A stretch of 56,984 bases of DNA, filler included, from Dugesia japonica (Eukaryota): assembly GCA_001938525.1 (NCBI GenBank). It is 3 parts of 3 records of this genome, joined end to end, with 100 filler letters (N's around TTAATTAATTAA, not from the genome) between each part and the next. Parts side by side here need not be neighbours in the genome. Positions count along the whole stretch, not along the records: positions 43,523 to 56,984 come from MQRL01609337.1; 2 more parts are not named here. One strand, 5' to 3'. A program made the position numbers and the translations under genes. The notes beneath the pieces were generated by a model. It searched no databases, was not told where the DNA came from, and saw only the letters and a program-made list of their open reading frames with translations. Numbering within the stretch: the stretch's first letter is position 1; each line of letters begins with the position of its first letter. This document shows, in pieces, positions 6,981 to 54,530 of the stretch.

Positions 6981-8130
6981 ATTTACGGTTTTTGATATTT
7001 CCGTTTCTGTTTCTTTATTTCTGTTGAAAGATCTACTTTAACGATTTTTGGTTCTTCATCTGTTGCTGCTGCTAACTTCCATCTTGTCACGTGCACTAAA
7101 CTTGGTTTCTTTAGTGGATTCCCTACTTCTTTCACTTTTAAATTCGTAGTTGTGGTATCTAATACTACATAAGGACCTCTATTTGGCCGTTTTAATTTGT
7201 TTGATGTGCTAACGTCTATTGATGGTGTATTTACCAAAACTAAATCTCCGATTTTAAATTCATGTGGTTTGGTATCTCTGTCATATAATTTCTTGTAACT
7301 CTCCTGGAAAGATTTTGCATTTGATTTTGCTGATTTTCACAAATCTTCCATATGTTCTTTATTACCAGTCACGTCTTCATTTTCTTCCGTATTCTTAGAT
7401 ATTGGTGGTTGATGTTCTAAATCAATCGGCATGTTGCATTCTCAACCATACATCAATTTAAATGGTGATGCTCTTGTTGCCGGATGTACACCCATCCTAT
7501 AAGCAAATAAACATAAGTTCAACTGTTTATCCCAATTTCTTTAATTTCTAGATACGTACGTCGACAGCATTCTGACTACAGTTTGATTAAATCGTTCCGT
7601 CATCCCATCAGTCTGCGGATGATACGCTGAAGTTCTCAATTTCTGAACGCTAAAGTAGCTTGTAATTTCCTTCATTAGCTCACTCATAAAATTTTTCCCT
7701 TGATCCGTTAAGATCTTCTTTGGTGGTCCGTATCGACTGAATAATTTTTCTACCAACACCTTTGCAATTGTGCCTGCTTTTTGGTCTTTTAACTCAAATG
7801 CTTCTGGATACTTTGATAGATAATCCACACCTACAATGTCCATTGCAATTATATCCATTGGAGCTGATGGTACTATTATTGGCTGTAATAGTGCCTTTGA
7901 CTTCTTGCCAGTGCCCCTTCTTGCTGCACATACTTTACACCGATTTACTTAATCTCTAACACAAGTAGTAATATGCGGCTAATAATATTTCGCTGGCAAT
8001 TTCGATTCCGTTTTCTTTGCAGACATGTGTCCTCCCAATAATTAATTGTGATACTGTTCCAGTATTTTAGTCTATCGACACATAGGGATCACTAATAACA
8101 TTTTCCCTCTTTCTTTCATCCTTAACCTCC
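6980..8130 (-). pseudogene. pol: Integrase (HHCC, DDE core, GPY/F) of giant element copy 1
   Basis: YHN..GGH..CKVC zinc-binding motif; IAMDIVG, ILTDQGKNF, SAYHPQTDGMTERFN; RGPYVV; small internal deletion after DIVG. Confidence 0.93.
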
Positions 8131-8199
8131 CTTTAACATTTTCATATCGTCCTCCCCGTTTTTTGAGGTGTTCATTCATTGCTTTTCCACAGTCAGTTT

Positions 8200-9450
8200 T
8201 ACTTCAATCAAAATGTTTTAGATATTCCGTGATTATTTTCACTTCTTCATCATTTCCTTGATCTTTCTTTAGTTCATTAAAATCTTTATCTTCAGCGAAA
8301 ATTATATATAATGTCGGTACTTCCCGATTCATTAGCTGTTGTAAATCGATTACCATTTTCTCTCCAAATTCTTTTGCTGTAGGCTCTTCTTTATATTCAT
8401 CAAATTTATCTCTTGACATAAAATTTACATTAATGCATATTCCTGTAATTTCATGGCCCATCTTGCCATTCGATTTATTTGTAATGGTTTCTGTCTGATC
8501 ATTGTTAATGGCTGATGATCTGTATATATTGTCAATTGATGTCNNNNNNNNNNNNNNNNNNNNNNNNNNNNNNNNNNNNNNNNNNNNNNNNNNNNNNNNN
8601 NNNNNNNNNNNNNNNNNNNNNNNNNNNGTTGAAAGGTTTTGCTAAAATATCCAAAAACTCGTTCCCAACCTTCCTCATCTAACTGACTCAATACTGATCC
8701 CATTGCATAACCACTTGCATCAGTTGATAGAACGAATAGTTTCTTTAAATCCGGTTGCTCTAATATAGGTGCTGTCATTAATTTATCCCGAATGATTTCA
8801 AATGCGGTTCGCTGTTCTTTTCCCCAATGGAATGTGACATCTAGTTTTACCAAGGATTGTATCGGCTTTACAATTATGGCGAATCCCTTAATAAACTTTC
8901 TATAGAAGTTTGCCATTCCTAGAAATATTTGTACATCATTCACCGTTTTTGGTACTGGAAGATTCTTTATTTTTTCAATAATTTTTGGATCTGGTTGTTT
9001 TCCACTTTCTGATATTAAATGGCCCAAATATGATACTTGATTCTTGGCCCATTCACATTTTGTAGTTTTCACTTTCAATTTCCATTCTCTCAATCTTACA
9101 AATACCTTNCTAAGATCCGTTAGGTGTGCATCAAATGTTGTCAAAAATAATAATAAATCATCAATATATACCATACATTGCGGTAACTCATGTGTTACGA
9201 AATTCGTACATCTCTGAAAAGATGATGGTGCATTTGTTAGTCCAAATGGCATTTTTGTAAATTGATACAAAATCTTTCCCGGCCGAAAATGCAGTCTTGT
9301 CTTTATTAGCCTCTTCAATTTCAATTGCTTCTTCACTAAGTTTTACTTGAGCCTGTGGTTGTCTGAATGGCCTAAGTTTAATTGGTGAATCATCAATTAG
9401 TGGTATTGAATGTTTTTTTACTGAACATATTCCTGATTCTTCATCTTTCC
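8200..9450 (-). pseudogene. pol: Reverse transcriptase and RNase H of giant element copy 1
   Basis: KMPFGLTNAPSSFQR, VYIDDLL, YLGHLIS, FLGMANFYRKFI; RNase H LSTDASGYAMGSVLSQ and IYTDHQPL..RMARW. The RT N-terminal part appears deleted. Confidence 0.95.
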
Positions 9451-9959
9451 AAGCAAAGATGTCTCGAAATTCTTCTAACAGCTCTACTAATCGTTTTTAT
9501 CCTTTTCCGCTAATATTTCTGATTGGATTTTAAATTTTCTATCTACGTCTTCTGTTTCTGTGGTCAGTATAACTTCCATTTTTGCTGCTCTTTGTTTTGA
9601 CATAGGTTTCATTTCTTCAATTTTTAATTTCTCTGCTTTCTCCTCCTCATCAAGAAAGGGTGTCAAAAATCCAATTTGGAATTAAAAAATATTGTAATAT
9701 TCTCTTCCGATGTATTTAACACGTTTATCGGTACTTGTCTTCTATCATCAACATACACCAATTCTTTGACTGCGGGTAGTTTATATCACTTTGTGAATCC
9801 TGGATGAGGCTTAAAATACATATTTCTTCTGTCATTCGTATTTGATTTTGCAACATAACACACATAGCTTTTTCTGGGTATTATGATTTTCTCCGGTATA
9901 TGTACCTCATCATCTTGAGTAAACAAGTTTTCTTTCGAACTAGTAATCTGCAATGTTGT

Positions 9960-10260
9960 CATATCTAAAAGCACATTTTTCATCAGTATAATATCAGTCC
10001 CCAATATACAATGTTCTTTCATTTCCATGATTTTCATATTGTGATCCACTTTTCTTCCATCAAATTCCACTTCACATTTTAATTTTCCAAATACCGCAGC
10101 TTGATTTCCATCTGCCACTATTACCTCCAAGTTACTGATTTCTATATATGGNCATCTAATTTTTGGGACTAAATTAAGATTCAATACTGATATGGTTGAA
10201 TCTGTGTCTAATAATGCTGATATCGGATTTCTATCTATCATTACGTCTATCATTATTCTC
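9960..10260 (-). pseudogene. pol: Main retropepsin-like aspartic protease of copy 1
   Basis: ALLDTDSTISVL (copy 2 has LLDTGAT), flap VADG, C-terminal CILGTD. Confidence 0.9.
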
Positions 10261-10397
10261 GATCCAATTTCCGAGTAAATACAAGATATCATTTTTGGTG
10301 GTTCATATGAATCCAAATTACTTGTTGATTGGATTTCTCGACTATTTCTTGTGTTTGTATGATTACGCGATCTTTTCGTAAATCCTTCTTGAAACCA

Positions 10398-10551
10398 GCA
10401 TTGCCTCTGAATGTGAGCGTATTTTCCACACAGATAACATTGTTTTCTGTCACTTTGATCATCAAATCTTTCTTCTAGTTTAATCGGATAATAACCCTTT
10501 CGATGGTTACATTGTTCTTCTATATGGTTGTTCCTCCTACATATCTGACAT
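10398..10551 (-). other. Two CCHC zinc knuckles in frame with the main protease
   Basis: My translation: CQICRRNNHIEEQC and CYLCGKYAHIQRQC, reading through without a stop into ORF 9786..10316. Confidence 0.88.
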
Positions 10552-10624
10552 CGTTGATTCTTAGTTCAAATTTTACGACTGGTGGTAGTAATAAGTTTAC
10601 TTATTTCTATTTTGCCGTCCGGAA

Positions 10625-11245
10625 AAGTCCTCGGCATCAAATCTAGCCCAATGATACAATCAAACAGCAAATACTCCATTATGTCTACTGGATGTGTGAG
10701 TATCGATTCATGAATTTCGGATGTCTGAGATTTTTTAATTTTTATATTTAATATTAAGATTGGTTNNNNNNNNNNNNNNNNNNNNNNNNNNNNNNNNNNN
10801 NNNNNNNNNNNNNNNNNNNNNNNNNNNNNNNNNNNNNNNNNNNNNNNNNNNNNNNNNNNNNNNNNNNNNNNNNNNNNNNNNNNNNNNNNNNNNNNNNNNN
10901 NNNNNNNNNNNNNNNNNNNNNNNNNNNNNNNNNNNNNNNNNNNNNNNNNNNNNNNNNNNNNNNNNNNNNNNNNNNNNNNNNNNNNNNNNNNNNNNNNNNN
11001 NNNNNNNNNNNNNNTTTTTTAAGAAAAGACTTGTGATAATCAATAAACAATTTATGGAGACTTTTGAGACTTTAAATTTAACTAATAGGGTGTATAAAAC
11101 AAATTGTTTCTGTCTCTATTTTACAATCCATTTCACCTATTATTTTATCTTGTTGTCCACTTTTAAGCACGAAAAATCTCATCGCTGTCTTACTGGCTCT
11201 TGTATCGATCATACAATTGATTTTACGACCATTTATCATTTAACG
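10625..11245 (-). pseudogene. Additional retropepsin-like domain(s) between the glycoprotein tail and the zinc knuckles
   Basis: MINGRKINCMIDTRASKT..SGQQDKIIGEMDCKIE..HPI on one side of the N gap and HPVDIMEYLLFDCIIGLDLM on the other. Confidence 0.7.
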
Positions 11246-11989
11246 TTTCATCAACATGCCACTACTTCGTGATGTTAATGGACATAAACTTTGTGTTTCC
11301 TCATGCTGTGAATTCACTTCATATTCAATAAACTCATTAAATTGTGTAGTTTTGTGTGGCGTAGTTTAAAAAATTTGCATATCATCTAATTTTTTCAATT
11401 TTATCTATGGACGAACTCTCAGTGGATATTCGCATCTTTCTTTATTTTTATTGATTTGTTCATCCAATTGTTGTAATTTTTCATTTAGATAATACGTTTC
11501 TGGAAAATAAAAAAATCGTTCCCCTTGATTTGAGTTCCATATTCGACTTGTTGTTTGTTTAGTTTGCTGTAATTTGCTCCTTGATGCTGGTATCGGTCTT
11601 TCCTAATTCGTCCTTAGAGTATGTGCCCGATGATTGGTTGCTAGTTCTTTTTTACAAAAATTCAGATTTTCATTTATAGCTGTATTCTTATAGTCATCAC
11701 GTTCTTGTTTGCTATCATTTCTTTGGTAATTTAGTTGATAATTTCCGCAATTAATTTCATCTTTATATTCATAGTGTTGGTTATTCACTGTTGCAAACTC
11801 TGCATTTCGTTGTCTTCCATCTGGATAATTATTGCCATCATCGTCACTACTATCATCATCATGACGTTTCCATGGGTGAAACATATCAAAATAAGACGTT
11901 TTCTGATCTTTCTGTTTCCTTAAACCTCTCCCAATTTCCCGCATTTTTGTTCTACAATTTCGCGATCTGTACCTTTTAATTTGCTTTAT

Positions 11990-13845
11990 TTCGTTAGCAA
12001 TTTTCTGGTATTATAGAGATCATTGGAGTAACTATTCAATACCTTTGACTTTGCCCATGCTGGAAATATTCCCATAACCATCGTCCATGAAACTCTTCGT
12101 TTCTTTTTATATAAATCAAAACAGGCTAATATTTGTGTTATTAAGACTTTTACGATAGTTACCATGAATATCACTCCTAATAAACCTGCCATAGCTTGAC
12201 CAAATATAATAAAACGTCCACACATTTTCTTCATTACATTTTCGGCCGCTTTCTGAAAATGATCCGTAGATAATGATCCGTAACTCATAATTTGGCCTGC
12301 CATCTGCCGCATTTCCTCCTCCTGCAATCTGTACTATGTTTGATAATATCTGCATTCATTTTACTGGGAACAACATATGATCCCTTGCTTTATCCAAATC
12401 CAATTGTTTATATACTCCACCTTTGACGATCTTAAACAGGACAAATTTATCTCCTCCTTTTAATTTCAATCTTGAAAAGTTTTTAACATTTCCACCGGCT
12501 ATTAATTTCTATTCCCATTAGGTAATGCAAAATAAGGTCCAAATACGTTTGAGCAATTTAATTTATTCGGTACATATTCTCTCGTGGATATTATTNNNNN
12601 NNNNNNNNNNNNNNNNNNNNNNNNNNNNNNNNNNNNNNNNNNNNNNNNNNNNNNNNNNNNNNNNNNNNNNNNNNNNNNNNNNNNNNNNNNNNNNNNNNNN
12701 NNNNNNNNNATTACTTCTCCAACAACCCGTCCAAATTGTCCTTCTTCCATAGGTAATAAAGGTGTTACGCTATCTGGGTTTGTAAGTGCAGTAGCCAATT
12801 TTGTTTTTAATATTTCCCTATTTAACATACAATCATTCCAGAGTAAATCATGATATGTAACTTCACATCTTGAGGTGACACTGCAGCTTTTGCCCTATCT
12901 AATCTCCTTTTACTCGCATAAATTCCTTTATAATTTGTTTTAAAAGCTAATTCGCCACATTTTGATGCCGTCTTTTTCCGAATTATTTTAATCATATCAT
13001 CTTTTCTAGTCGTCATCAATACGGTAGGAGTATNNNNNNNNNNNNNNNNNNNNNNNNNNNNNNNNNNNNACTCTTTAATTTTATCCACTCGTATTGTTTC
13101 TACTTCTTCTAAATCTACTACTCTTTTCTCGCGATATTCATCAAATGCAGTTTCTTTTAGAAAGGTCAAAATACAATCCTGATGATTAAAATGATATATT
13201 AAAGTATATTTTCCGGATGAACTTGAAAGATCCGTTGCCTTACAGTGTGGATACATTTTCATTGCTAATGTTTCTGTATCAAAATATGCATCATATTCCT
13301 TTAACTCTATTCTGTAACTTTCAATTGCAACTACATAATTGATTACTTTACCATTAACAGTGTATGTTCCTCGGGTGCACCCCCATGTTCATCTGTTATA
13401 CTTCCGGCTGCAAATATTTGTTGTTGAACAATATGACCCGCTTTTGCATTAACAATGACCCCATATCTTATTTGAACTTGTCCGTTAGTGAATCCATTTT
13501 GACAGTGTTGACAAGTTAGATAAATTGACCTTACATCTGTTCTGGCATCTATCATTGCCGTATAGCTTCGGGCTCCGCAATAAAATATTAAGACTCTCAT
13601 TGTTACTATACACTCTTGTATCTTTGCTTTATAATAATCAGATTCCTGATACACAAAATAATTCACACTTTTTCTTACTGGATTCATTCTTTCCGGATTA
13701 GCTTCAGGATACTCGTCTGTGTCTACCAATGAATATACTGTTTCCCAAATTTCCATTTTATCACTATCATAAGTTGTTATAGCTGCAGTTTTATTTATCA
13801 TCATAAATAATAATAAGATCATCATCATCATTGGTTGCCAATTAT
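11990..13845 (-). pseudogene. env: Chuvirus (Jingchuvirales)-like glycoprotein, env-like, with internal signal peptide and C-terminal TM
   Basis: Signal MMMMILLLFMMINKTAA, then YD(C/S)..YSL.D, ECIV..YCG..SY, C..GF..G, FAAGS, C..REIL..KLA....P, G.FG.V.GEV, GGVY...DL...RDHMLFP, FG..MAGLLG..IVK..I. This motif order is characteristic of chuviral G. Confidence 0.82.
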
Positions 13846-13869
13846 TAACTCTACTTGTGGTATGTGTTT

Positions 13870-14500
13870 CTACATCGACTTCATCAATATAATCCTTCAA
13901 TAATTTTTTCGCTTGTACAGGTATACTTTGTTTACAACTATATTTTGGTTTCATTTTCTCAATTAGTCCTGGGCAACCTCCAATTACTGCTAGCAAAGGT
14001 TCAATTTTATCCTTGATTATTTCGATAGCCGGTAGTTTGCGCATGTCAAATTTTGTTATCGGTCTACTTCGGGTAATTATTATAGATGCTTGTTTAATTA
14101 AATATGCAATCGCGATTGCAATTCTTGTTGGTGATGGACCTACTGCAATTAATCCATCTACTGCTTCTTCCGTTTCACTTTTCAAAGTAACTTTTGTTCC
14201 CTGCAAAGCAGGTAATTTTGTAATTAATGGTTCTAATATTGAAGCAATTTGTTCAGATTCTTCCGTTAATTTTGTGCTATCAATCCACATCTTTAGTTCT
14301 GGATATATTTTTAANNAAATTAGATGCATTAGTTGTTCCGTTGTCATTTCTTTTGATTCCATTTGTTCTAACAATTCTTGTGATACAGCTGTTAGTTGTT
14401 TATTTTGCATCACGTTTCTCTTTGATACCTTTTCTTGATTTGAAATTCCATTACTATTTGATGATCCTCATAATTTAGGTAACCTTCCTCGAAATCTTTT
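13870..14500 (-). pseudogene. Conserved helical domain of unknown function, fused upstream of the glycoprotein signal peptide
   Basis: ORF 13343..14413 runs from this domain into G; a homolog is present in copy 2 (48691..49095: IYP.LK.WI.S..L..E..Q.A.ILE..I.KLP). Confidence 0.65.
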
Positions 14501-14959
14501 ATCCATGAATGTTTCTGCATCTCTTGTCGTTGTTTTTTGAAATTCATTTCCAGTTGATTCCCTTGAGCTTCTACATCTTGTATATTTCTTCTGTCANTAC
14601 GTCTGACAAATTCATTTCATCTACCATTTCATCTGCAATTGTTTGTAATCTGGGTGATATTGGCTGTTCTGCATCAATATCCACTTTTTTGGGATTCCAA
14701 ATTAGAGATCCTTCAATCTTTTGACTTCTCATTCCTCTTTCTTTTGCAGGCTCTACTTGAGTTATTTTCGTCATTTCCTTGAGTTTCTGTTCCTTCTTCA
14801 TCATTCGCTGTACAAGATGAACTTTCCGATACTCGTATTGCTGTTTTTGCTGCAATTGTTGATTGAGCTGCCCAGTCTTTTGTGGAACGTCGTCCAGCCG
14901 TAAATTTGGGCTTTTCTGCTAATACTTTTGTAGTTTGTTTCTTCTTCAGCATTCCTTTA

Positions 14960-17900
14960 CCCACCACTGGGTGTATATATATTTTATTTGGATGCCTCAC
15001 TTGCACATCCAGTGTTCCGATAATATCTTTGTTTAGTAATTCCTGATTATAAAAAATAAGTGAATATGGTGGATTAAATGGCAATTTATTCTTTAATTGA
15101 TCCACTGTTTTATAAGCCATTGTTTCCACTCTTGTTTCTTGACTCGTTAGTGCGATTATTCTGAGAGTTATTTTGAGAGGTTTTTCTTCTTCCATCTCCC
15201 GATTTTGCCATTTAGTAATTATAATTTTAAATTGTTTCAGCCTCCAATCACATTCTTCTTTTAATCTTGATATTTGATAAGTTAATTCTCTGAACTCTTT
15301 TAATGATAAATCGCTGCTGATTAGTTGATCCAATAATTGTTGCACTTCTTGCTTTAGTACATTCTCTTGTTTATTGATGGTTGCAAATTGTTGTATTAAA
15401 CTTTGCGTGTTTCCAATATTGTGTCTGTTTCTTGTTGTTGTTGCTGCTATTGACTCGCACGGTTGGCTTATTGGACACAATTCTTTGATCGATTGATCTT
15501 GTGATCTAGATTTTAGTTTTTTTTTAATTTTTTTACTGCTACCGTTTCTCTGAAATCAACATTTAATTCCTCTACATGTATTTGTATTCCCCATGGCACC
15601 TGTGGATTAATTTCATCAATAAAGAACTGAATCGTTTTTCTACGCAACGTTTCTCTTGGTCGTTTCTTAGTATACGGATTCCTTTCTTGATCTTCTGCTG
15701 AAAACACGTAAACATCCATCATCGATTCTGGTCAAATACCTGAAACTTTTACTGAGTTCTCCTCATTTTCCTCAGTGATCTCTTCCCCACAATATATAAC
15801 GATATCTTCGTTTTTAGTTTCTAATCTAATTGCTTTCCTCTTGGCATTTGCGTGTTAATATAGTTAAGTATTTCATTTATTAACTTCTCCCAAGTTGTAG
15901 TTGTTTTAATCCTAAATTCCTTTTCCGATTCATCTGAGAAATATACTGTAACATTTACTGATTGTTTTGGTATGTTTTTAGCATGTATTCCTACCAATGT
16001 ATTAACTAATTCACAGAACATTTCTCCTCCAATTAATTTCAATTGATTTTAATTGATTTATTACTTCTTCTATCTTTAAATTTTGCATTTGTTTATAATT
16101 TTCTTTTATAACCATTCCTATCTTGGTTAATGCCAATCTATATGTCATCCGTGGTTCAATTTCTGTTGTTATTTCTGCTGTTGACCCAATTTCCTCGACT
16201 ATTATATGCGTAAAGCAATCCATTCGATCTATTTCCGCCATAAATATTTCCCTCATTCTTGCACCAATTTTATGTATTGGTTGTATTCGAAACCTTTTTG
16301 GCATTTCGTCATCGAGTTCTAATGTCAATTTTGTTATTTCTCCTGGTCGTAATCTAAATTCAATTAGATGTTCATTATTCTCGTTTAATTTATCTTTTTC
16401 TAATATCATATAATCACACATTATTCTATATTTATTCGATTTCTTCTGCAATGGCAGTTCGCTTATTATATCTCTCAATTCTCCAATAGTTGTAGTTTGA
16501 GAATTTTTAACGGTTTTAGATGTCAAACTTGATGTTGACCCTTTAACTTCGTTTATTACTGGATAAAAAAAATCGGCTCCAACAGTTGTCTCTTTTATCA
16601 GCTCTCGATAACTTTTCGTTATTTTTATCCATTTTCTCTTTTTTTCCCAATTTATTTGAAAATTAAAATATGCGTCGCATAAAAAATTCATCATCTTCCA
16701 ATAACTTTGTTTTGGAATAATCTCTTTTCAATTTATAGTTGTTTTTACTAAATGATCCCTTGCTTCCAAATATCGACTATTTTCTCTCAATTCATCATCG
16801 CACGTCACTAATTGTTCACTCGATTTGCTATGAATTTCTGTAGCTACGCTGCTAGCTTTCTTTTTATCTCTCTTTACTTTGTTCAGTACTTTACTCAAAA
16901 ACGCTCTCAACATACATATATGTGCTTTAGGCCTTTTCTTCGTTTCTGGTATTGAAATTGAGGTTTTTTTGTCATAATTATTATATACCATAACGTTTTT
17001 CTTATACTCCACGTCTAATGATCTCATGATTTGCTCTGTTGTTCGAATATGTAGATGTGACAGTACTGAGGCTTTAAATAAAAACAATCTCTCGTTTTCA
17101 AATAATGTAACTTCAGTAGCACCACCAGGCTTTAATCCATAGATGTAAATGTGCTCATTTACCACCTCTTTGTTAACAATTCTAACTGGTGAACAAATTA
17201 TATAATGTTCAAGTAGTTTTGGCCATTTTAACTCATTCAATGCTTCTAATAGTGCTTTCACCGTTGTATTCTTTAATGCCAATTTTCGAGGAATATTTTG
17301 GTATCCAAATCGGTAATTGTATTTAGATATTTGTTCTTCATCAAATAAGCCATATTTATGCAATCATGTGCGGGTTTTATTGCTTCCATCTCACTAATTT
17401 TATAATCATCCGTAGGCGACCTAAAATTTCCTTTTCATATTCATCGATCATATTCTTCCATTGTAATTAAGTTGTTACATCTATATGTCCTGGCTCTGCT
17501 AATTCAACAATATGATTCATTATCGACCAATATGCTTTTCGATCAATCTTATTTTTCTTTTTTCTAGTTCTTTTCATTTTGTTTCTATATATTCTCTCGT
17601 TTGTGGTTGTTATTTTATTGACGTTTTCATCTTCTCGTTTGTTACAACTTGATTGATCGTCATTTCCGCTCCTTGTTTTGTATTATCATCATGTTTTACT
17701 GAGTTCTTTGATACTTTTGTTTTCCATCTTTTTCTATAATAACCCTTTTAGCTGGTTTCTTTTGTCTGTCCAATAAAGTTTGTGCTCTCATCGAATGCTT
17801 AAAAAATGTCTTGTCCAACGATTAAATTATTTCATTTATTGTTCTATACTCAAAATGCAGGAACGCTGGCTGTTTAGTTTGATATAGTCTATCACTTTCT

Positions 17901-18929: not shown

Positions 18930-20060
18930 TTTCCCACAATTATAACAAGTCATATTTGATGATTGCCAGCTCACTTGTTTGTTGTTATTATTATTCTATT
19001 TAAAATTATTCGTTTGTCCTCTTGTATTCCCAGGTGATAATACCTTCAATAATAGCTGGGCTCTTGCTATAAAATCAGATACCTTAAGAACATTTTTAGT
19101 TTGTTCATCTTGTTCTTCTATTTGAAACACTTTTGATTGAAGAAAGTCAACATTGTGATATACTCTCGCTGAATTTATGGCCAATTCTACTGTTTGCGAC
19201 TGAGTTAAATGCACATGTCTCTTTACGTACGCATTTCCCAACCCTTTTATAAATGCTCCAATTAAAACTTCTTCATTAATATTATCTCAAATAGTTATTT
19301 TCCCAAGTCTTCGCAATTCAGCCGCAAATGCTTGAAATGATTCATCTTTATGCTTTCGTCTGTTCATAAAATCTTGCATCTCCTGACCTTGTAATGCAGG
19401 TGCTTTAAAAATATCTAATAACAATGTTTTAGCCTCTTCCCATGTTTTTACTTCTTTATCTTTCTCAGTGGCTTTATCCAAATAAATAGTTTTATTAGCT
19501 CTAACTAAATACAGTGGTAAACGCTCTACTGCTGTTTTATCGCTTCAACAGCATGCGTTGATATCAATTTCATAGTTTGTGATGAAATCGAGTATTTTAT
19601 CTGGATCTCCGTCATATTTATCACCACTGAAATATGTTCTCCATTCTTTACGTTTATCGTTCATATCCGATTCATGTTGTCTACTATTTGACGACATTTT
19701 ATTTAATTCTTTGATTTCCTCTTGACCGCTTAAATTTTCTGCTTGGCTTTTTGATTCCGAATTCGATAAAAAATGCGACACAAGTACTGTATTATTTCTT
19801 TCTACTATCTGATTTTGATTTTCAATATTGAGTCTGTTTCAATATTTTCCCTTGATTCTGAGGATTCCATTGTTATTCTCAAAGGAAAGCAGTTAGGTGA
19901 TTGATTTGTTTCTGAAGATATTGGCTTTTTAGATATCCTTGATTCCTTTCTTGTAAGTGATGATGCTCTTTGAGATTTTGCTTTGTGCTCTTTTCTACTT
20001 CCAACAGTAGATCTTGTATAATATCTGGGCTTTTCTGAATCTTCAATGGCTATCTTGGTA
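18930..20060 (-). pseudogene. gag: Gag (retrotransposon capsid plus first CCHC knuckle) of giant element copy 1
   Basis: KYDGDP..F...YE, LPLYL, TWEEAK..L...F, DESFQAFAAELRRL, FIKGL, T.ELAI..A, then CYNCGK before an N gap. ORFs 19781, 19481, 19241, 18974 and 18542 are all in one frame. Confidence 0.9.

Positions 20061-22132: not shown

Positions 22133-22134
<2 letters not shown>

Positions 22135-22201
<67 letters not shown>

Positions 22202-22270: not shown

Positions 22271-22335
<65 letters not shown>
22135..22335. repeat. (TAT)n microsatellite with internal N gap
   Basis: Directly visible. Confidence 0.97.
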
Positions 22336-40537: not shown

Positions 40538-41170
40538 TGTTATATAAATCTAGATATTAAATAATAAGATATTTAACAAGTTAAAATTATATTTCATAAA
40601 ACAGCAATATTAAAACAAATCAAATTCATTTTAAAATTTTGAATATTTGATTTTAAATATTCAATAATTTGAATTTAGATATATTTAAATATATCACATT
40701 CCTCCCTTTGCTTTATCGATATTGAGGATTCGGATTCTTTGTCATTCTTTCTGGATAACGTCTTCTGATATCGCTCTCAATTTGCCTGTCAGGTTGTACT
40801 GGTAAGGCTGTTTTCTTTTTGCTTACTGATATTTGTGTGCTCCAGGACATGTAGAAAAGTCCATCTCTTGGTATTCTTTTGATTTGGCTGTAATTTCTTT
40901 GAATTAAAGTGTTTCTATTTTCATCAAGCAAAGTGTAAGTCCATTCATCAATTTTCTTTATTACTTTAAATGGTCCAATATATCGCCAATAATTGCAGGA
41001 GGTTTGGCTGCTGCAAGGTCAACTCTTTCTCCTTCAAGTGCTGATATTTAGCTGTTTGTTTCGTTGCCTGATCCTTTAGTTGCAACACCTCATTCCGAAG
41101 CTCTCGGCGCTCCTCTTTGCATTTCTTTTGCATCTCTATCATCTCCTTCGTTGCTATTTTACTGTCTGGT
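40538..41170 (-). mobile_element. 3' end of a second small-family Gypsy copy (integrase C-terminus, PPT, 3' LTR)
   Basis: TG..CA LTR at 40538-40698 matching 33933-34113; adjacent PPT (AGCAAAGGGAGGAA on the minus strand); YIGPFKVIKK and RRRYPER integrase tail. Confidence 0.85.
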
Positions 41171-43422: not shown

Positions 43423-43522
43423 NNNNNNNNNNNNNNNNNNNNNNNNNNNNNNNNNNNNNNNNNNNNTTAATTAATTAANNNNNNNNNNNNNNNNNNNNNN
43501 NNNNNNNNNNNNNNNNNNNNNN
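43423..43522. other. Artificial scaffold-joining linker (44N-TTAATTAATTAA-44N)
   Basis: Identical to the linker at 30590. Confidence 0.92.
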
Positions 43523-43583
<61 letters not shown>

Positions 43584-43590
43584 GTAATAA
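43523..43590. repeat. (AAT)n microsatellite at scaffold start
   Basis: Directly visible. Confidence 0.97.
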
Positions 43591-44469
43591 TGAAATGCAC
43601 AATCCGTTACTGATTTTAATTACTTTATTTTTAATTCTGAGATAAGTCAAACTAACCAATACTTATAAGGTTTATTGCTAAACTTTCACTCTTCAAAATT
43701 TAACGTTAAAGAAAAATTTGAATATTCNGAAAACCTGCAGTGTTCATTATTAACCAAAGGCATACTAAAATCAGATACATTATCGTTTAAGATTGCTGAC
43801 CTCCTCCATCTGACCGACCGAGCTCCTTGCAAGCTCCTATTTGGAACGTTGGCATAATTGGTTAGCAACTGCTGTTGTAATTTATTATACTCTGTGTTTT
43901 CTCTTTTTATCCCCATAGTAATTTTGAACATAACTCATAACTATCTTGTTGTAATCTCTATCACTCAACTAAAACATATACTCATTGCACTCTTGTTGAA
44001 ATCTCTGTCATAATAACCAATGTGGTAATTAACGGCTCGCTCTCAAAACCTCGTTCCTCATTTATAGTCGGATTTATTTACTCATAAAATTTCTTTGCCA
44101 CAACCGGGAACTTGGTCAATCCAATGGAATCAAACATTGAGAATGACACTCAGACAATAGTATTAAAACATGAGTTAAAAACAACTACAATTTTTCCTTT
44201 TTCTATTTATCTCTGCGGTATCCTTTCCTTTAAAATTGTCAATTAAAATCGTAACTTTTAAATTCTTTAACAAACTTTTGTAATTCAAATCAATATATGT
44301 ATTTTTCAAATTATGCTTATAATCTTTTAAGTTCTGCCCTCTTTTCTCCTCGTCATCCCATTTTATTTCTTGTTGGAGAGAGGGATTGTTTGGCTCTCGA
44401 TTAGCCTGTGAATAATGCTACGAGTTTCTCTATCCGGGCTTCCCGATTGGCTGTCACTGTTCTCAATTC

Positions 44470-45420
44470 GATGTGCGTATCTCAGTGTTTTACCTGTGGT
44501 TACAATTTCAATTGTTGGTGTATTAATCAGTACCATATCACCCGTTTTAAACGTATGGGGCTTTGTATCTCGATCATTAAATTCCTTATAACTTTCTTGA
44601 TTTAATTTCGCATTTAACGCTGCTAATCTCTATATTTCTTGCATTCTCTCTTTCATGCCGGTAACGTAATCATCCTCGCCCATGTATTGTGATATCGGTG
44701 GCTGAAGCTCCAAATCGATTGGCATATTCCATTCTCTACCATACATTGATTTAAACGGTGACGCGTTTGTCACGAGATGTTCTCCCATCCGATATGCAAA
44801 AAAAAAATCTCTCTGTGATTTCGTCGCATAACTTGATAACATTCTAGTCAATGTCTGATTGAATCGCTCTGTCATACCGTTCGTTTGTGGATGATACTTT
44901 GACGTCTGTACTTTATGAATATTAAAATAACTAGTCACTTCTTTCATTAACTCACTCATGAAATTCTTTCCTTGATCTGTCAATATCTTTTTCGGTGACC
45001 CGTATCGACTTAATAATTTATCTACTAATACCCTTGCAATTGTCGACGCTTTCTGATCCTTTAACGCAAATGACTCCGGAAATTTTGATAAAAAATCCAC
45101 TACTGTCAAAATATAGACTTTTAAACTGTCCGTTGGTGGTAATGGTCTGATTATATCCATTGCAATTATATTCATTGGTGCTGCTGGCACTGGTATCGGT
45201 TGTAACGGAACTTTAAATTTTTTTCCTTTTCCTTTTTATGCTGTACCAATCTCACATTAACCAATTCATTCTTTCACACATGTCGTAATATGCGGCCAAT
45301 AATATTTTGCTCGCAACTTTGATTCGGTTTTCTTTGCTGACATATGACCTCCTAGAATCACATTATGATACTGCTCAAGTATTTTTGCTCGTCGACATTT
45401 TGGTATTACCAATAACAGTT
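44470..45420 (-). pseudogene. pol: Integrase of copy 2
   Basis: IAMDII.PLP, VDFLSKFPE, ILTDQGKNF, YHPQTNGMTERFN; truncated after GDMVLINTP. Confidence 0.93.
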
Positions 45421-45699
45421 TATCACTTTACTTCATCATTAATCACTCATTTACCACGGTATATCTACCACATCGTTTCTTTAAATGTTCCTTCGTCGCT
45501 TTGCAACAACCCACTTTGCTCAAATCAAAGTGAGATTTATACTCTAAAATTATTTTCACTTCTTCGTCCTGATCCTTTTTCAATCCAGTAAAATCTTTAA
45601 TTCTCTGCCAATATCATGCATAGAGATCGTATGTCTCGATTCATTAATTGCTGTAAGTCTATCCATTCACCTCTGGTTGCTTTATTTTCTACCACTTCT

Positions 45700-47000
45700 T
45701 CTGATTCGTCTGTAAATTTTGCTCTTGACATATAATCTGCATTTGAATTTGCTTTTTCAGTTTTTTACTTGACCAGCGGTGCATATTTTTGTAGCTTCAT
45801 CGCCCATCTGGCTATTCGATTTGCTTGTAATGGCTTTTGTCCGATCATTGTTATTGGCTGATGATCAGTGTAAATTATTATTGGATGTCCCAGTATTAAC
45901 TGATTAAAATGTTTTACCGCCTTTACTATTGCTAAAATGTCTCGTTCAGTGGTACTATAATTCTTTTCAGATCCTTGAAATGTTTTACTAAAATATCCGA
46001 TCACACTTTCTCGCCCTTCCTCCTCTAATTGACTCAATACTACACCCATTGCATAATCGCTTGCATCTGTTGCAAGTATAAATGGTTTCCTAACATCTGG
46101 TTGTACCAATATCGGTCATTAACTTTTCTCGAATTGTTTCAAATGTTTTTTGATGCTCATCTATCCAAATAAACTTTACGTCATGTTTCACTAGTGATTG
46201 AATCGGTCTCACGATTGTCGCAAATTTTTCGATAATCTACAAAAATTTATTTTTTTATAAAAAATTTTCGATAATAATTCGCCATTCTTAGTAAGACTTG
46301 AATATCGTTTACATTCTTTGGCACCGGTAAATTCTTAATCTACTCAATATTTGTCAGATCTGATTGTTTTCCTTTATCTGTTATCAGGTGTCCTAAATAT
46401 GCCACTTGCTTTTTAGCCCATTCGCATTTCGTAGGTTTCACTTGTAGTTTCCATTCTCAAAATTTGTACAAATACATTTCTCAAATCTTTTAAATATTCC
46501 TCAAACGTGACAGAAAATATCAACAGATCGTCAATATATACCATACACTGTGGCATGCCATGTGTCACAAAATTCATGCATCTCTGAAATGATGCTGGCG
46601 CATTTTTCAGTCCAAACGACATTCGAACCAATTAATCATTACTGCTGAAAATGCAGTTTTCTCTTTATCTGCTTCCTCTATTTCGATTTGCGAATACCCA
46701 CTCTACAAATCCAACGTCGTAAATATCTTTACTTTATAATAAAACGTTAACATATCATTGATGTCTGGTAACGGATATGTATCCTTTTTCGTTTTCGCAT
46801 TTAGTTGTCTGTAATCAATGCAGAATCTTATTGTTCCCTCTATCTTTTAAACCAATACTACTGGAAATTGATCGGTGAACAACTTTGGTCAATTAATTTA
46901 CATTTTAACATCTCCTCGATTTTCTCCTCGCAGATATTCCTGTTTGCCTCGACCTGTTTGTAAGTTTGCAACTTTATCGGTGTTTCGTTTGTTAATACTA
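45700..47000 (-). pseudogene. pol: RT and RNase H of copy 2
   Basis: RFCIDYRQLN, TLDL..GY.QI, FGLKNAPASFQR, VYIDD, TDASDYAMGVVLSQ, NYSTTERD.LA, YTDHQP. Confidence 0.95.
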
Positions 47001-47449
47001 TTGAATATGTACCGCACATGTACCTAATTTATTGCCTGTCCACGCAAAAATATCTCTGAATTTCCCCAATAAATTTAATAATTTAGCTTTTTCTGCAGCT
47101 GATAAAATTGTTGATTCCACTTTAAACGTTCGATCGACTTCTTCAAAATTTGTCGGTAGCTCGATTTCAATTCGCTTCGCCATTTCTCCTTTTAATTTCT
47201 CGTAATCATAGTTCACCATATTATCCATCTCTGCCTCGCCGTCTCCCAGTGGAGTTAATACTCCGATTTTTGAATTTGGATATATCGTTATATCTTTTTC
47301 TGTCGTATTTAGTACATTCACTGGCACTTGGCCCTCGTCGGACCTTTTTACTATTTCCCTTGCTACTAGTAATTTATATCGTTTCGAGAACCCCTCGTGC
47401 GGTTCAAAAATCATATTCTCTTTACAGTTTTCTCTGGTTTTAAGGTCAG

Positions 47450-47741
47450 TCCCCAAAATACAATCTTCACTCATATTCATCACCGTCATTTCATGAGATA
47501 CTGTTCACCATTGATATTCAACTTCACATCGTAATTTGCCATACACCTTGGGTTGCCATCCATCCGCTAAAAATATTTCTGATTTATTCTGTGTAATATA
47601 TGGCAACTTGGTTGGTGATACTAAATTAGAATTTAATACTGATATTGTTGCTCCGGTATCCAACAACGCTGATAATATCCTACCATCGATTTTTAGGTCT
47701 ATTAATATCCGGTTTTCAGCCTCAGAATAATTATAACACAC
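47450..47741 (-). pseudogene. pol: Aspartic protease of copy 2
   Basis: ALLDTGATISVL, LADG, CILGTD. Confidence 0.92.
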
Positions 47742-47769
47742 GTAATCCTTCTTTTTTGTGTGTCAGACC

Positions 47770-48568
47770 ACAACAGCGCTTCCTCCTTTGTTTCCATTGC
47801 TACATTTACTTTACCAACGGCTGGCATTCACTCCTTTTTAATGGAGTCAACAATTTTCTTTCCTCGATACTCATCGAACAAGACCTCCCTAAGAAATGAC
47901 ATCGTACATTCCTGATGATTGACTTGATATACTATGGTTGACTCTCATGTATTACACGAATTATTGGAGGCTAAACACATCGAGTACATCTTCATCTTTT
48001 TGGTCGTTGTATTAAATAAGGCATCAAAATTTTTGAATTCCGCTCTTTAAATTTCTATGGTCACGACTCCAGTCGCATAGCCTAAGAGGTTAGTGTATTT
48101 TCCTTGTACGCAAGTTACTGTTGCATTTGAAAAGGATCCTGCTGCGAACAGACGAGTTTGTACTATTTGACTTCTTTTGGCATTTATTGTTTTCCCTTTA
48201 CTCACGTGTTTTTTACCGGTTGTAAATCCAGCTTCGCATTGTTGTCGTGTGAGGATAACAGGTATTGCTTCTATACCTGGGGATATGATTGCCGAATAAC
48301 TACTTCCTTCACAATATACAAACACTTGCATTGTTACTTTACATTCCATGACCTTTGTCTTGTAATTATCTGATTCTTGGTCCACAAAATAACTCATCGA
48401 CTTATGTACAACTTCTAACTTTTCTGGGTTTGCTTCTGAGCATTCCTCTGCATCGATTAATGAATACACTGTTTCCCCGATATCCATATGATCACAATCA
48501 TAAGCTTGAATTGCTGCACTTCGTCCCATTAAGAACATTAAAATTAAAACCATGAACATTGACTGCAT
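47770..48568 (-). pseudogene. env: N-terminal half of the chuvirus-like glycoprotein, copy 2
   Basis: Signal MFMVLILMFLMGRSAA, then IQAYDC..YSLIDAEEC..ECKV..YC..SY..QQC..GF..G..FAAGS..TC; joined by a deletion to PR with no N gap. Confidence 0.82.
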
Positions 48569-49699
48569 ACTGCTCGTGCCTGTACTTCAATTGATCTCTG
48601 TTCCGTATTCATCAATGTTATCCTTTAATAATGCATGTACTCATTCGTTTAATTTGTGATGTGAATTCGTTTTTGGTTTTATCTTTTCCATTATTCCGTT
48701 CCTTTGACATTAACTAGCAATGGTTCAATTCGAACATTTGTTATCTTGACTATTGGCAAGGTGCTTAATTGAAATTTCATTCCCGGTCTACAACGGGACA
48801 ATGCTATTGGCGTTTGTTTTACTAGATATGCACATGCCACTAATAACCTTGGAGTCGTTGGACAATTTGACATTAGTCGTTGTACCTCTTTTTCCATTGT
48901 TTCTTGATCTTTGAGGGATGTATATTTTGCAACTGGTAATTTTACTATTATTGATTCTAATATCGCTGCTAATTGTTTACACTCCATTGACAAAAGTTTA
49001 CTTCCAATCCATAGTTTTAAATTCGGATATATCGCTTGCAATACCTGATGTATTCGTTTCTCGGTCGATATCGTGTGTGGTTCTAATTGCTCCATTATTT
49101 CCGTCTAAAATTCGACCATTTGTTCATCTCTTGTTGGTTTTCGCCTCGTTGTACCACTTGTTGTTGCTCCTTTTTGTCGACCTCTTGGTTTTTTATCCAT
49201 CCACGTCTACACATCACGCATTAATCGTTGATGTGTCTCATTATCGGTGGTTTCATCTGTATTATCCGTTGCGGCAGGTGGTATTATTTCGTCTGCAATT
49301 TTGTCCAATCTAACTGATATATCATCGTCTTCTTGATCCAAATCCACTTGTTTCGGATTAAATCTTCCGACGTCTTTGATTTCATTGGTATTTCCGACTC
49401 CGACTTTGAAGCTGGTTCCATTGGGATTATCTGAATCTCTTACTCATCTACCTCATCTTCAAGATCCAAAATTTGTTCAACTATTTCATCTTCTGTAGTA
49501 TTTTCTGTTGTCAACTCCTTGATTGGCGATTTTCTTGGTCGTCCTCTTGATTTGGCAACTACTTCACTCGTGTTACCTGGCGTCATTGGTTGTACAAATG
49601 ATTTTATCGACGTATGACTTGATCCTAGCCTCGATTGTAATTTATTTTTAATTACCTTGGCTGGTAATTTTCTTCTGATCAATCGTTTACTACCTTTCG

Positions 49700-52430
49700 G
49701 TTTGATATAAATTTTATTTTATACCTTTTGTCGGATATCCAACGTTCCGATGATATCTTTATTCAATAATTCCAGATTATTCAGTAGTAGTACATATGGC
49801 GGGTTGAATGGTATTTTGGATTTCATCTGTTCTACTGTTTCGTAAGCCAAATTCGAGATTCTCGTTTCAAGACCATCTAGTTCTACGATTCTGAAGCTGA
49901 ATCTAAGGGGTACTACTTCATCTTGTTCGTATTTTCTCCATCTTGATATCAGCAGTTTAAATTGTTTTAGTCTCCATTTGCATTCCTCTTAACATCGGGA
50001 TATTTCGTAGGTCAATGATCTCAACTCCTCAATTTACAAATCACTCTGCAATAATTGATCCGCTATACGCTCCACACTGGTTTTGTTTATACTTTTCTCT
50101 TGAATTTTTTATATAAATTGATCTATCATATCGGCAGAATCTTTACTACATTTTTTCGATTTACCAGTTATTACCGCTACCATCTCTTGTGATCTACTCA
50201 ACTCTTGATTTGATTTGTATTTTCGATGTAGCATTGGTCTCTGCTGTATTACCGCTATCGTTTCTCGATTTGCTAATTCAATTTCATCATTATGTAGTTG
50301 CGATCCCCATGGCAACTTTGGATTAATATTATCGGCATAATATCGTATTGTCTTTCTACACAAATTTCTCTGATTGATTTTAACGTATACGGGTTTCTGT
50401 CATTTTCTCCATTGGCAAAAATATAGACATTCATAATATGACCTGGCCATATGCCTGATCGCTTTACCGGATACTCATCATGATTCTCTATGATCTCTCC
50501 TCCGCAATAAACTACAATATCCTCTCATTTAGTAATGTGTGTATTCTCTTTTCCCTTCGCTGTTTGCTTATTTAAATGTTTGATAATTTTCTTTATTAAT
50601 TTATCCCAGCTTGTCGTCGTTTTAATATCGAACTCTTTACTTGACTCATCTGGAAAATATTCTGTTACTTGCACATCTTGCTTTGATATGTTATTTGCAT
50701 GAGTTATTGTTAACGTATGTATGAGCGTATACAACTCTTTTTCTTCAATCATACACAATTGGTTCAATCTGTTTATTATCTCTTGAAAATTTAACTCAGT
50801 CATTTGACTGTAATTCTCGTAAATTGTTAACGCCATTTTTGCCATAGTTTGCTTCAAACTTTTCCACGGTTCACTTTCGTTTTCTGCTTCTGCAATCTGC
50901 TTGATCTCCTCGTCAGTAACGATTCTCAAATATTCCATTTTATCTATTTCGTTTACATACACATTTCTCATTTTTGTTCTAATTCGACTAATTGATTGTA
51001 ATTCAAACTTTTTCGGTTTTCCGTCATCTAATTCCAATGTTAACTCAGTAATCTCTGCTGGTCTCAATCGTAATTCAATCACATGTTGATCCCTTTTATT
51101 CAGTTTGTCTCTTTGTATAATCATCTATTCACACTTAATCCGATATTTCTCAAATATCTTCTCCAAAGGCAATTTACTCAGTATTGCTCGCAATTCACCC
51201 ACTCTGGTAGTTTTAAATTTCTCAACTGTTTTTGTCATCATAGTCATGCACAAATTATCATTCATTGTAGGATAGTGGAATTTTTACCCCAAAATTTGAT
51301 CCCACTGTTGTTGCTGCGATCATCTACTGATACTGTTTAATTAATTCAGACCAATTCCTCCGATGTTCCCATAATATATCATAATGATAGTTTGCATCCC
51401 AAACTAAATTCAGCATTCTCCAATACGTTTGTTTCGGAACTAGTTCCTTCTTCTCCAATGTGATATCCACGTATTTGTTTATTGCAGCTAAAATATGATA
51501 GTATTTCTCATTGCTGTCCGCGTTGGCAGTAGCTGATGTTTCACTCGGCACATTCGCACTTTCTTCTCCCACATTACTTGATTGTTTACCACTCTTTTTA
51601 CCTCTATTTATTATTTTACTCGAAAAAGATATCATCATAAAAACTCTAGGGGGTCCTGGCTGCGTTCTCGATAACTGTTCATCGTTAGCTTCTGTAGTAG
51701 TTTTAATTACAACGCTTGGTATTTCAGCTTTTGGTAATTCACTCGAATGGATTACCAGTGATACCTTCTTTTCTGACAACGGCGCGAGATATTTAATTTG
51801 GCATTTATTTAACGAAATCATTATATTTTTAGTTGTTTTAAAGTAGAAATGAGGCCAAATTAGTTCGTTATATAAACGCATTCTGCGATTTTCTAACAAC
51901 GTAATTACCATATTAGTTCCAGGTTTTAGACCATATTCGTAAATATATGCATTCATATCATTGATACCAACTACTGACACTGGGGTACATATAATATATT
52001 CGCCTATGGGTTTTACCCATTCCAACTCCTTCAACGCGTCGATTAAGTCTGTTACTGTCGTTTCTTTCAGTTTTAACACTCGTGGGATATTCCACTTTGT
52101 TGCAGCTGGTACTTTCTACAAGACATAATCCTTCGTGATGTATGCGGTTCGATCTTCATCTGGTCCCCATGCTTCCATTGCTTTGATTTTATAATCCCCC
52201 GCAGACGTGTTTTCAAACCACTCTTTCTCATATTCCAGAATTAATGGTCTCCATTTCTGATTCGTCATCGTGTCAATATGACCTGGCTCCGCTAGTTCCA
52301 CCAAATGATACATTATTTTCCAAAAAGCCTTCCTAGTTAATTCATCTTTCAATAATTTAGCATCTTTTATGACTGTTTCTACATAATCATACCTTACATG
52401 ATCCGAGTGTTCTTTTCTCATAAATTGTTT
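49700..52430 (-). pseudogene. Ubiquitin-like repeat array of copy 2 (four units visible)
   Basis: Homologous to copy 1 units B-E, e.g. RIVELDGLETRISNLAYETVEQMKSKIPFNPPYVLLLNNLELLNKDIIGTLDI. Confidence 0.6.
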
Positions 52431-52934
52431 TTTAAATCATTCATCAATATTTAAGAAATAGCATTTTCTCATAAAGCCAAACCGATGATCGTGCTCCCGA
52501 AAACAATTTAAATAATCATTTATCACCTTAAATTTTCATAATTTATCAAGATCTGTTATAATTTTATCAATTCTCAAATAATTGATCTGCATCAAAGTAG
52601 ATAAATATGAGCGCACTGGCATTGAACCCCCCCCCGCCCCCCGCCTTCGACTGTTTCAGTTGTTTTGATGTTTTTTGATTTGTAGCTTTTTGATTGGAAA
52701 GTTCTGAATATATGAAAAAATGCTTTGAATTCGGGTTGAAACGGTCAAATTTTTGCTCAGGAAGGTCGAAAATTCGAGTTTTCGAAACCAAATTTTCCGG
52801 TCAAATTTTATCGTGTAATTTTGAATTTGGTATTGATCGTCTTAGAATTGAAAGGTCAACATTTTCTATATAGAGTTTGCTATATGAATATGCTTGGTTC
52901 TCCGAGAAAAGTTATGAGCGCACTGGCACTTTTC

Positions 52935-54530
52935 ACTTGGTTTTACTGTAACACATTAGCTTTACTGTCTTAAACTGGTTTACTGTGTCCATTGGCTTTA
53001 TTAAAACAAATAAGCTTACTATCACATCGGTTTTATTGAAACACATAGGCTTTACTGTAACACGTGGGCTTTACTGTGTCATACTAGTTTACTGAAATAC
53101 ACGGAGTTTACTATGTCTTATTAGCTTTATTGAAACACACTGGTTTACTATGTACACTTATTTACTATAACACATAAGCTTTACTCTATCACATAAGCTT
53201 ACTGTAGTAATCTGTTTACTTTATCCATTGATTTATTGAAACTCGTGTGTTTTACTGTATCAGATCGGTTTTCTATACCCATTTGCCTACTCTATCCACT
53301 TATGTAGTGTATTTACTGGCTTNNNNNNNNNNNNNNNNNNNNNNNNNNNNNNNNNNNNNNNNNNNNNNNNNNTACTCTATCCACTTATGTAGTGTATTTA
53401 CTGGCTTTCTATATCCCTTGCTCAACTCTGAAATTTTTAAAACTTAAAGAAATTAAGGAAGTTATGGGAAGTTTAATAAATTTTAATAAAATTGGTCTAT
53501 ATTAACACATTGTTTTCTACTATTTTAGTATAACTATTAGCTTACNNNNNNNNNNNNNNNNNNNNNNNNNNNNNNNNNNNNNNNAATCTAGTAAACCTAT
53601 TATATTCGATATACTTTAGAGAAATGGATGAAATTAAAGTTTTAGTACATTTAATTAAATTTAAATAACTTTAGAAAAATTAATAAAATTTATTAAACTT
53701 TAAAATTATTAGGGCAGTTAATGGAAACTTAACAAATCTTAATAAGATTAGTCTATATTTTAATTATGGATCTATACATTTTAATGGAATTGCTTATGGA
53801 CTTAGTATATACTTTGTGTATATCTAAAGAAAGTTATAAAAATCAAGTTTTATAAATAAAAGTTAGACTTGAAAAATTCCAAACTAATGTCTCAATGTAC
53901 AATAGATGGTGACAATTTACACTTGATTGGTAACAATTTGCTTATATGTAACTGCAATTTATTCAAAGTGGTTATAATTTACTCCTAACTTTCCATAATG
54001 TTTACATAGTTTGCTAAATTTAACACATAGGTGGTGATAATTTGCTCATAGATGTCAGTAAATCACACNNNNNNNNNNNNNNNNNNNNNNNNNNNNNNNN
54101 NNNNNNNNNNNNNNNNNNNNNNNNNNNNNNNNNNNNNNNNNNNNNNNNNNNNNNNNNNNNNNNNNNNNNNNNNNNNNTTGATTAGATTTGATGCATATTC
54201 AATTGATAAATTAGTAATAAGTCAAACAACTTACTTGAACAATTTTTATGAACAGGTAATATGTATGGTAAATCATTAACTTTACCATATTGCAATGATT
54301 TTATTGTAACAAATGGGCTTTACTATGACCATTGGTTTCCCTGTTACACATTAGTTTACTGTATTACTTGGGATTTACTCTATCATATTCGCTTACTGTA
54401 CTAATACCCTTACTCTATTCATTGGCTTTACTGTATTCCATTGGTTTCACTCTATAGTGTTAGGTTACTATACTTATTTGCTTACTCTATCCATTAGCTT
54501 TGTATATACAGACGCATATAGACTTTGCTG
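52935..54530. repeat. Degenerate ~21-22 bp minisatellite blocks (GG/AGCTTTACTG..ACA..TT-like; GGT.ACAATTT-like)
   Basis: TTTACT recurs periodically at ~52935-53410 and ~54310-54530, and CAATTT at ~53905-54060. Confidence 0.6.

Follow-up and report, generated by a model that had tools for sequence, protein, structure and literature searches.

A dead Ty3/gypsy fragment of Dugesia japonica, very probably Burro-like, with conserved glycoprotein and probable ubiquitin-like regions ahead of Pol

The stretch of Dugesia japonica DNA considered here (56,984 nucleotides of assembly GCA_001938525.1, referred to as the window; AT-rich, with GC of 15-37% per 2 kb) contains two decayed Ty3/gypsy-like copies, both on the minus strand and both dead. 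The subject of this analysis is copy 2 (52392-44489), a fragment of a Ty3/gypsy element with many lesions; copy 1 comprises ~17 kb of coding-like sequence, with a span of ~4,270 codons from Gag to integrase (IN). The copies are separated by spacers at 30590-30689 and 43423-43522, each consisting of 44 N, TTAATTAATTAA and 44 N, which presumably are scaffold joins, so that the placement of the copies on different scaffolds in a preceding sequence-only reading holds. Copy 2 and its flanks contain no N (43729-53322).

In a translation of copy 2 with X at stops, Pfam profiles mark the glycoprotein and the Pol domains. The order of the fragment is ubiquitin-like (Ubl) repeats, BCL2-like stretch, glycoprotein G, protease (PR), dUTPase-like stretch, reverse transcriptase (RT), RNase H (RH) and integrase (Table 1). 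The two copies are colinear in tblastn blocks (copy 2 52349..44480 against copy 1 17556..7187), at 64-69% nucleotide identity (blastn, five long blocks) and 34-75% amino-acid identity depending on the segment. Copy 2 is thus clearly diverged and keeps the same domain order, as had been claimed; the order Ubl-G-Pol is also borne out, except that the claim omitted the BCL2-like stretch between Ubl and G. The Pol order PR-RT-RH-IN is found with Pfam in both copies. The dUTPase profile PF00692 has no Pfam match in copy 1, and Gag has none in copy 2, which is 5'-truncated.

Table 1. Features of copy 2, of its surroundings and of copy 1 (window coordinates)
Feature	Coordinates	Strand	Evidence
Conserved accessory piece, 5' end of fragment	52221..52392	-	60% amino-acid identity to copy 1 17556-17428; fold unassigned
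Ubl-like repeat A	51861..52112	-	Alignments to copy 1 repeats; low-confidence model; structural search
Ubl-like repeat B, homologous to A	51035..51283	-	hhalign A vs B 89%, E 2.3e-6; dN/dS 0.22 over 51240-50930
Possible Ubl-like module C, assigned only by eye	50408..50689	-	57% amino-acid identity to copy 1; dN/dS 0.15
Ubl/SUMO-like module D, after coiled-coil stretch	49686..49925	-	54% identical to copy 1 14956-15195
BCL2-like stretch, candidate	48700..49128	-	38% identity to copy 1 13976-14404
N-terminal 40% of chuvirus/mononegavirus-type (gB-like) glycoprotein G	47762..48586	-	PF24664 E 1.2e-18, profile 4-228 of 653
Out-of-frame deletion junction, G to PR	47740..47765	-	Alignment to copy 1
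Aspartic protease	47445..47717	-	RVP PF00077 E 1e-5
dUTPase-like stretch between PR and RT	47262..47402	-	PF00692 E 0.045, 14 bits, cut-off 22
Reverse transcriptase, frameshifted	46115..46846	-	RVT_1 E 1.1e-9 and 4.2e-7 in two frames
RNase H	45783..46097	-	PF17917 E 4.4e-35
Integrase (H2C2 + core), 3' end missing	44489..45406	-	PF17921 E 2.6e-12, rve E 1e-10; copy 1 match stops at 44480
Scaffold spacer and (AAT)n run, outside element	43423..43591	.	Sequence composition
Copy 1 Gag, ends in CCHC start at N gap	18930..19697	-	Retrotrans_gag E 4.2e-5, Ty3_capsid E 6e-4
Copy 1 full-length G, C-terminal membrane segment	11986..13900	-	PF24664 profile 5-150 (E 1e-12) and 524-579 (E 2.9e-13)
Additional protease-like motif with CCHC pair, copy 1	10380..11270	-	gag-asp_proteas E 0.17; zf-CCHC E 0.1; Cys/His spacing in translation

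Selection between the two copies was estimated as the ratio of nonsynonymous to synonymous rates (dN/dS) on codon pairs from in-frame tblastn blocks, with stops and N excluded. The ratio is 0.21 for four Ubl-like segments (95% bootstrap 0.11-0.31; 349 codons), 0.24 for G (0-0.37; 240 codons), 0.17 for PR-dUTPase and 0.09 for RT-RH-INT (575 codons); the BCL2-like stretch is the weakest case, with 0.45 (0.27-0.73; 141 codons). These ratios are rough because synonymous differences (pS, 0.46-0.86) are near saturation, and tblastn favours better-kept codons. Without correction, pN/pS comes to 0.40 (Ubl), 0.48 (G) and 0.64 (BCL2-like stretch). As a control, 400 neutral replicates were generated synthetically with matching identity, in a model that leaves out the local-alignment bias; their means are 0.83-0.94 and the minimum is 0.64, so that Ubl and G fall under the lowest neutral replicate. 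Second codon positions are better conserved than third positions in all seven segments (p <=5e-4). These results support the view that the Ubl-like and G regions were under purifying selection between subfamilies, during transposition. No values near 1 appear in Ubl or G, and the proposal that the order is ancestral to at least two subfamilies and was maintained under selection is supported by these estimates.

Contig depth falls ~100-fold below 44434, where there is no match to copy 1, and relatives diverge into other sequence at 44489 and, in runs X4 and X5, at 52392. The fragment is therefore limited to 52392-44489, in place of the extent 43600..52430 given previously, and 43600-44480 is rejected as a part of the element. 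Contig records aligned to 43800-53300 number 10,061, 7,215 and 6,932 in three DNA runs from three studies; these counts include a flanking satellite (~52940-53300), and summed contig depth does not equal copy number. About half of the aligned records are at 90-95% identity, and all 30 bins are covered. Copy 2 stands for a large diverged family of elements. The satellite is degenerate, with a period of ~18-19 bp, and lies at 52942-53300 and 54300-54500; the DNA runs are deepest in its bins, and RNA reads, from both strands, come mainly from it. One RNA run, about 25% of which was read, yields 277 reads (4 at >=99% identity, 244 at <95%), deepest in this satellite, and nothing firm on copy 2 comes from them. 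Among the runs listed as sharing words with the stretch, none is an RNA run.

The Ubl label applies to the modules to different degrees. Module D is supported: its copy 1 counterpart (14956-15195) matches, with an Atlas score of 0.92 (recognition 2795), a cluster in which 97% of the members carry PF00240 and 77% carry PF11976; the three top matches (0.93-0.94) are unnamed clusters, and the shared features number 164, against 170 typical of true family members. Repeat A, which occurs twice in copy 1 (17852-18118 and 17067-17318, minus strand), is suggested to be Ubl-like by a wide structural search (VIA), in which ubiquitin, SUMO or Ubl appears in the title of 31 out of 50 rows, all of these at Z <=3.7; the best Z overall is 3.9, and the top two rows are unrelated proteins. 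The five-sequence model of the copy 1 repeat A used for structural work has a predicted local distance difference test score (pLDDT) of 50, and a Foldseek search with the repeat A model gives nothing at E <=0.001 (best E 0.47). Copy 2 starts too late to reveal a counterpart of the first copy 1 repeat A. Module C has no Pfam, PDB or hhalign support, and an Atlas search of 50528-51124 gives no lead (best 0.77). Altogether, one module (D) appears supported, two or three more are suggested and one is unproven. None of them ends in Gly-Gly.

The identification of these modules as ubiquitin-like, made earlier from the sequence alone, accordingly stands through the Atlas match and a weak fold search, and finds no significant Pfam or PDB sequence match; Pfam itself gives only UBL_UBAC1 (E 0.13). 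That the accessory repeats are not ubiquitin-like at all, and that the resemblance exists only to the eye, would fit these empty searches, the poor models and the Foldseek result, as well as the failure of hhalign to link D to A, B or C and of a homologue search with the Ubl D alignment to pass any of 7 candidates. The Atlas score of D, the ubiquitin-type rows for A and the PF11976 match published for Burro at the same position (PMC6431247) argue the other way, and we regard this alternative as very unlikely. An AlphaFold model of the coiled coil with Ubl D, from two sequences, has helices preceding D and leaves the Ubl unfolded (pLDDT 45). The sole profile match of the accessory region among 1.84 billion representatives, a fibronectin type III repeat protein, is rejected as spurious.

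Directly before G, both copies contain a conserved 143-amino-acid stretch, the BCL2-like candidate. The label is tentative and is taken from the corresponding position in Burro and from a BH1-like motif. A motif RGRPRK, which we take to be AT-hook-like, is present in the copy 2 linker (49530-49547, minus strand) and is unseen at the corresponding place of copy 1.

The glycoprotein belongs to PF24664, the Monjiviricetes fusion protein family. The copy 2 piece starts with a hydrophobic leader and has stops in frame. In copy 1, a stop-free open reading frame (ORF; 13343-14467) contains the BCL2-like stretch and the start of G in frame; in both copies the connection between G and Pol is broken. 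Compared by eye with six Schmidtea errantivirus ENV rows, G in either copy has cysteine spacing and motifs in common with them and is near-identical to none; a hand count gives ~35-40% identity to row 6. In a homologue search of the G piece among longer proteins, 0 of 744 candidates passed, and PDB sequence searches with G, Ubl A, B, C and D and the BCL2-like stretch give nothing below E 0.068.

At the junction that ends the G piece, similarity to copy 1 extends on the G side as far as 47830 (copy 1 13102, adjoining an N gap) and resumes on the PR side, weakly from 47765 (12/17) and clearly from 47740 (copy 1 10305/10288). About 2.7 kb of copy 1, comprising the C-terminal half of G, the extra PR-like motif and the CCHC pair, is absent from copy 2. 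A gap-free deletion joining mid-G to PR, as had been reported, is therefore confirmed for the DNA, with 0 N, and fails for the protein: G and PR are in different frames and G carries in-frame stops, so that no G-PR fusion is made, and the in-frame fusion is rejected. Likewise, the claim that the architecture is not an artefact of N gaps survives for Ubl-BCL2-G(N-half)-Pol and not for the parts lost from copy 2. Elsewhere, copy 1 at ~9400-9270 (minus strand) is without part of the RT N-terminal region that is present in copy 2, and copy 2 ~47000-46640 has no copy 1 match, which indicates a second deletion, specific to copy 1.

The join itself might have arisen during assembly, as a chimera of two repeat copies that were collapsed. 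The assembly is fragmented and gap-rich, no run shares >28% of the words of the stretch, and the join is bridged by none of the 24 contig pieces listed; 24,409 further pieces lie outside this list, and there is no N near the join. We judge a chimera to be improbable, and since the order matches copy 1 anyway, the architecture stands even if the join is chimeric. The G-less form could also be an amplified non-autonomous subfamily rather than a private lesion, with which the uneven depth, lower in some G bins (2,200-17,600 in run X1) than in most Pol/Ubl bins, is consistent. Yet the out-of-frame join would sever Pol from the polyprotein, two relative contigs among those listed stop at 47762 and 47763 without bridging, and depth summed over contigs is no measure of copies; this, too, seems unlikely.

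Copy 2 is best compared with Burro/GYPSM1, the giant gypsy-like long terminal repeat (LTR) retrotransposons of Dugesiidae, which are present in thousands of copies (PMC6431247, Arkhipova and Yushenova). The 4,873-aa ORF1 of Burro contains Gag with CCHC knuckles, MATH, a Ubi2/SUMO-like motif (PF11976) and BCL-2, an env matching mononegavirus fusion glycoproteins lies in frame between gag and pol, and a dUTPase-like domain is located between PR and RT; the same plan is described in D. tigrina, where ORF1 is without MATH, and decayed Burro/GYPSM1 fragments are reported from D. japonica (PMC6431247). Burro exceeds 30 kb in a genome with A/T >70% (PMC11410931), and Burro RNA goes up on smedwi-2 RNA interference (PMC8532177).

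The elements studied here share with Burro Gag with CCHC, a mononegavirus-type env before PR and an AT-rich genome, as well as a PF11976-type Ubl upstream of the BCL-2 position and env (through one source, the Atlas match of module D). Further likenesses are tentative: a conserved stretch at the BCL2 position, a dUTPase-like stretch below the Pfam cut-off at the PR-RT position, and thousands of diverged contig records in three studies, which may reflect a high copy number. The length from Gag to IN in copy 1 is ~4,270 codons, against 4,873 aa for Burro ORF1. Given these Pol and Gag domains, PF24664 in both copies, the PF11976/PF00240-type Atlas match, the weak dUTPase match at the Burro position, the BCL2-like stretch and G in one copy 1 ORF, the ENV likeness by eye, dN/dS, the thousands of contig records in three runs and the low GC, copy 2 is very probably the dead remnant of a giant high-copy Ty3/gypsy element that resembles Burro/GYPSM1 and belongs to the planarian GAG-ENV-POL errantivirus type.

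Several points weigh against this assignment. The likeness to Burro is set by published descriptions, not by direct sequence comparison. No MATH, BIR, ankyrin, Smc or AIR1 has a Pfam match in the minus frames of 2499-20200 and 43699-52700 or the plus frames of 100-7301 and 18700-22101, in sequence that is decayed and gapped. Paired LTRs were found for neither copy, copy 2 being a fragment and both copies lying near scaffold or window ends. The BCL2-like stretch has no Pfam or PDB match, and the near-saturation of pS, the tblastn bias, the empty Pfam and PDB searches for the Ubl modules and the feature count of module D belong here as well. With MATH, BIR, ankyrin, Smc and LTRs undetected and the likeness drawn from descriptions, the element is filed as Burro-like, under no numbered subfamily.

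Other differences from Burro are the apparently several Ubl modules and, in copy 1, the additional material that follows G (a PR-like motif and a CCHC pair). The segment concerned (10380-11270), which lies between G and the main PR, has a protease-like motif and, across a gap of 249 N, a motif resembling a protease C-terminus together with two CCHC knuckles; it looks like a second nucleocapsid-protease unit. A GAG-ENV-POL lineage of its own, which would be the sister of Burro-1 to -4 and would combine several Ubl modules and the additional protease and CCHC pair with the absence of MATH, has to be considered. The missing MATH, BIR and ankyrin matches, the homology of repeats A, A' and B and the fact that G is near-identical to none of the six Schmidtea ENV rows are compatible with it, and PMC6431247 mentions the Ubi2/SUMO-like motif without a count. 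Nevertheless, the D. tigrina element also is without MATH in ORF1, decay and N gaps mask weak domains, and Burro-2 to -4 are themselves several subfamilies, outside the comparison. A sister lineage is hence possible, though we lean against it.

Non-canonical endogenous retroviruses of nematodes (Sacco et al. 2022) reportedly have ENV before POL and an RNA-virus-type glycoprotein, as in copies 1 and 2; we know of no accessory Ubl/BCL2 block in them. GAG-ENV-POL elements with gB-type ENV are described in nematodes, bryozoans and flatworms, including six Schmidtea mediterranea entries with 1 to 215 intact copies each (PMC13524379, Chary and Hayashi). These errantiviruses (HSV/gB type) share with our copies the gag-env-pol order, a gB/chuvirus-type glycoprotein, Ty3/gypsy Pol and, by eye, ENV motifs; unlike in our copies, "ubiquitin" is absent from the main text of that paper, and neither copy is near-identical to any ENV listed there. 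The Anakin elements of mosquitoes also carry a chuvirus glycoprotein in an LTR retrotransposon (PMC7642597, PMC10084718), but are BEL/Pao elements of insects, whereas the copies here are Ty3/gypsy.

Beyond the integrase of copy 1 (2842-7100, minus strand), a Cys-rich stretch (~6900-6500) occurs along with frames that are charged and helical; others have a hydrophobic leader (~4330) and a segment like a membrane span (~2900). A Pfam scan of these frames gives no match, and they are possibly accessory ORFs. Runs of (AAT)n at 1-74, 22134-22335 and 43523-43591 lie upstream of copy 1 and, for both copies, far out on the 3' side, and may be insertion targets or mere assembly break points. Mobile-element debris elsewhere in the window includes weak matches to retroviral protease (E 0.015) and a Tf2-type SH3 (E 0.001) at 32552-32905 and 40716-41018 (minus strand) and, by eye only, pieces like a non-LTR RT tail and a B-family polymerase at 34328-34954 and 36205-36459 (plus strand). 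No tRNA genes were found in the window.

By analogy with Burro and with class III fusogens and polyproteins in general, an active element of this type would encode one polyprotein, Gag - Ubl-like modules - BCL2-like - G - PR - dUTPase-like - RT - RH - IN. An internal signal peptide would send the G ectodomain into the endoplasmic reticulum and the membrane anchor would return Pol to the cytosol, with the chain cut by signal peptidase and the element's own protease. G might act as a class III fusogen in the passage of particles between cells, and the BCL2-like domain might hold off apoptosis. Because they lack a C-terminal Gly-Gly, the Ubl modules are likelier to be built-in binding or decoy domains for the host ubiquitin/SUMO machinery than conjugated modifiers. 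Copy 2 itself is capable of none of these functions; the deletion presumably hit its lineage late, after insertion or in the last round of reverse transcription. A bolder proposal combines two parts: a Burro-related lineage with a tandem array of four or five non-conjugatable Ubl modules, under selection as strong as that on the fusogen, that would serve as a poly-Ubl decoy for the ubiquitin/SUMO defences of the host; and the extra protease-like motif with the CCHC pair as a duplicated nucleocapsid-protease boundary, a trace of the arrival of a Ubl-BCL2-env cassette between gag and pol. We consider this combination doubtful.

The Ubl-G-Pol architecture is already published, in 2019, for Burro/GYPSM1 (PMC6431247). 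The gain is accordingly small: the architecture is confirmed on two decayed copies, and the ratios give a measured sign that purifying selection acted on the Ubl-like segments and G between the two subfamilies; newness is not claimed for this, as the literature searches were not aimed at such values. Possibly new details are the four or five Ubl-like modules instead of one and, in copy 1, the additional protease-like motif with two CCHC knuckles that follows G; no paper on tandem ubiquitin-like domains in planarian LTR retrotransposons was found in a search that left subscription papers, Repbase reports and the Grohme 2018 supplement outside. If present in intact copies, the Ubl array and the second nucleocapsid-protease unit would bear on how the element handles the ubiquitin and apoptosis pathways of the host, and on how the gag-env-pol order arose.

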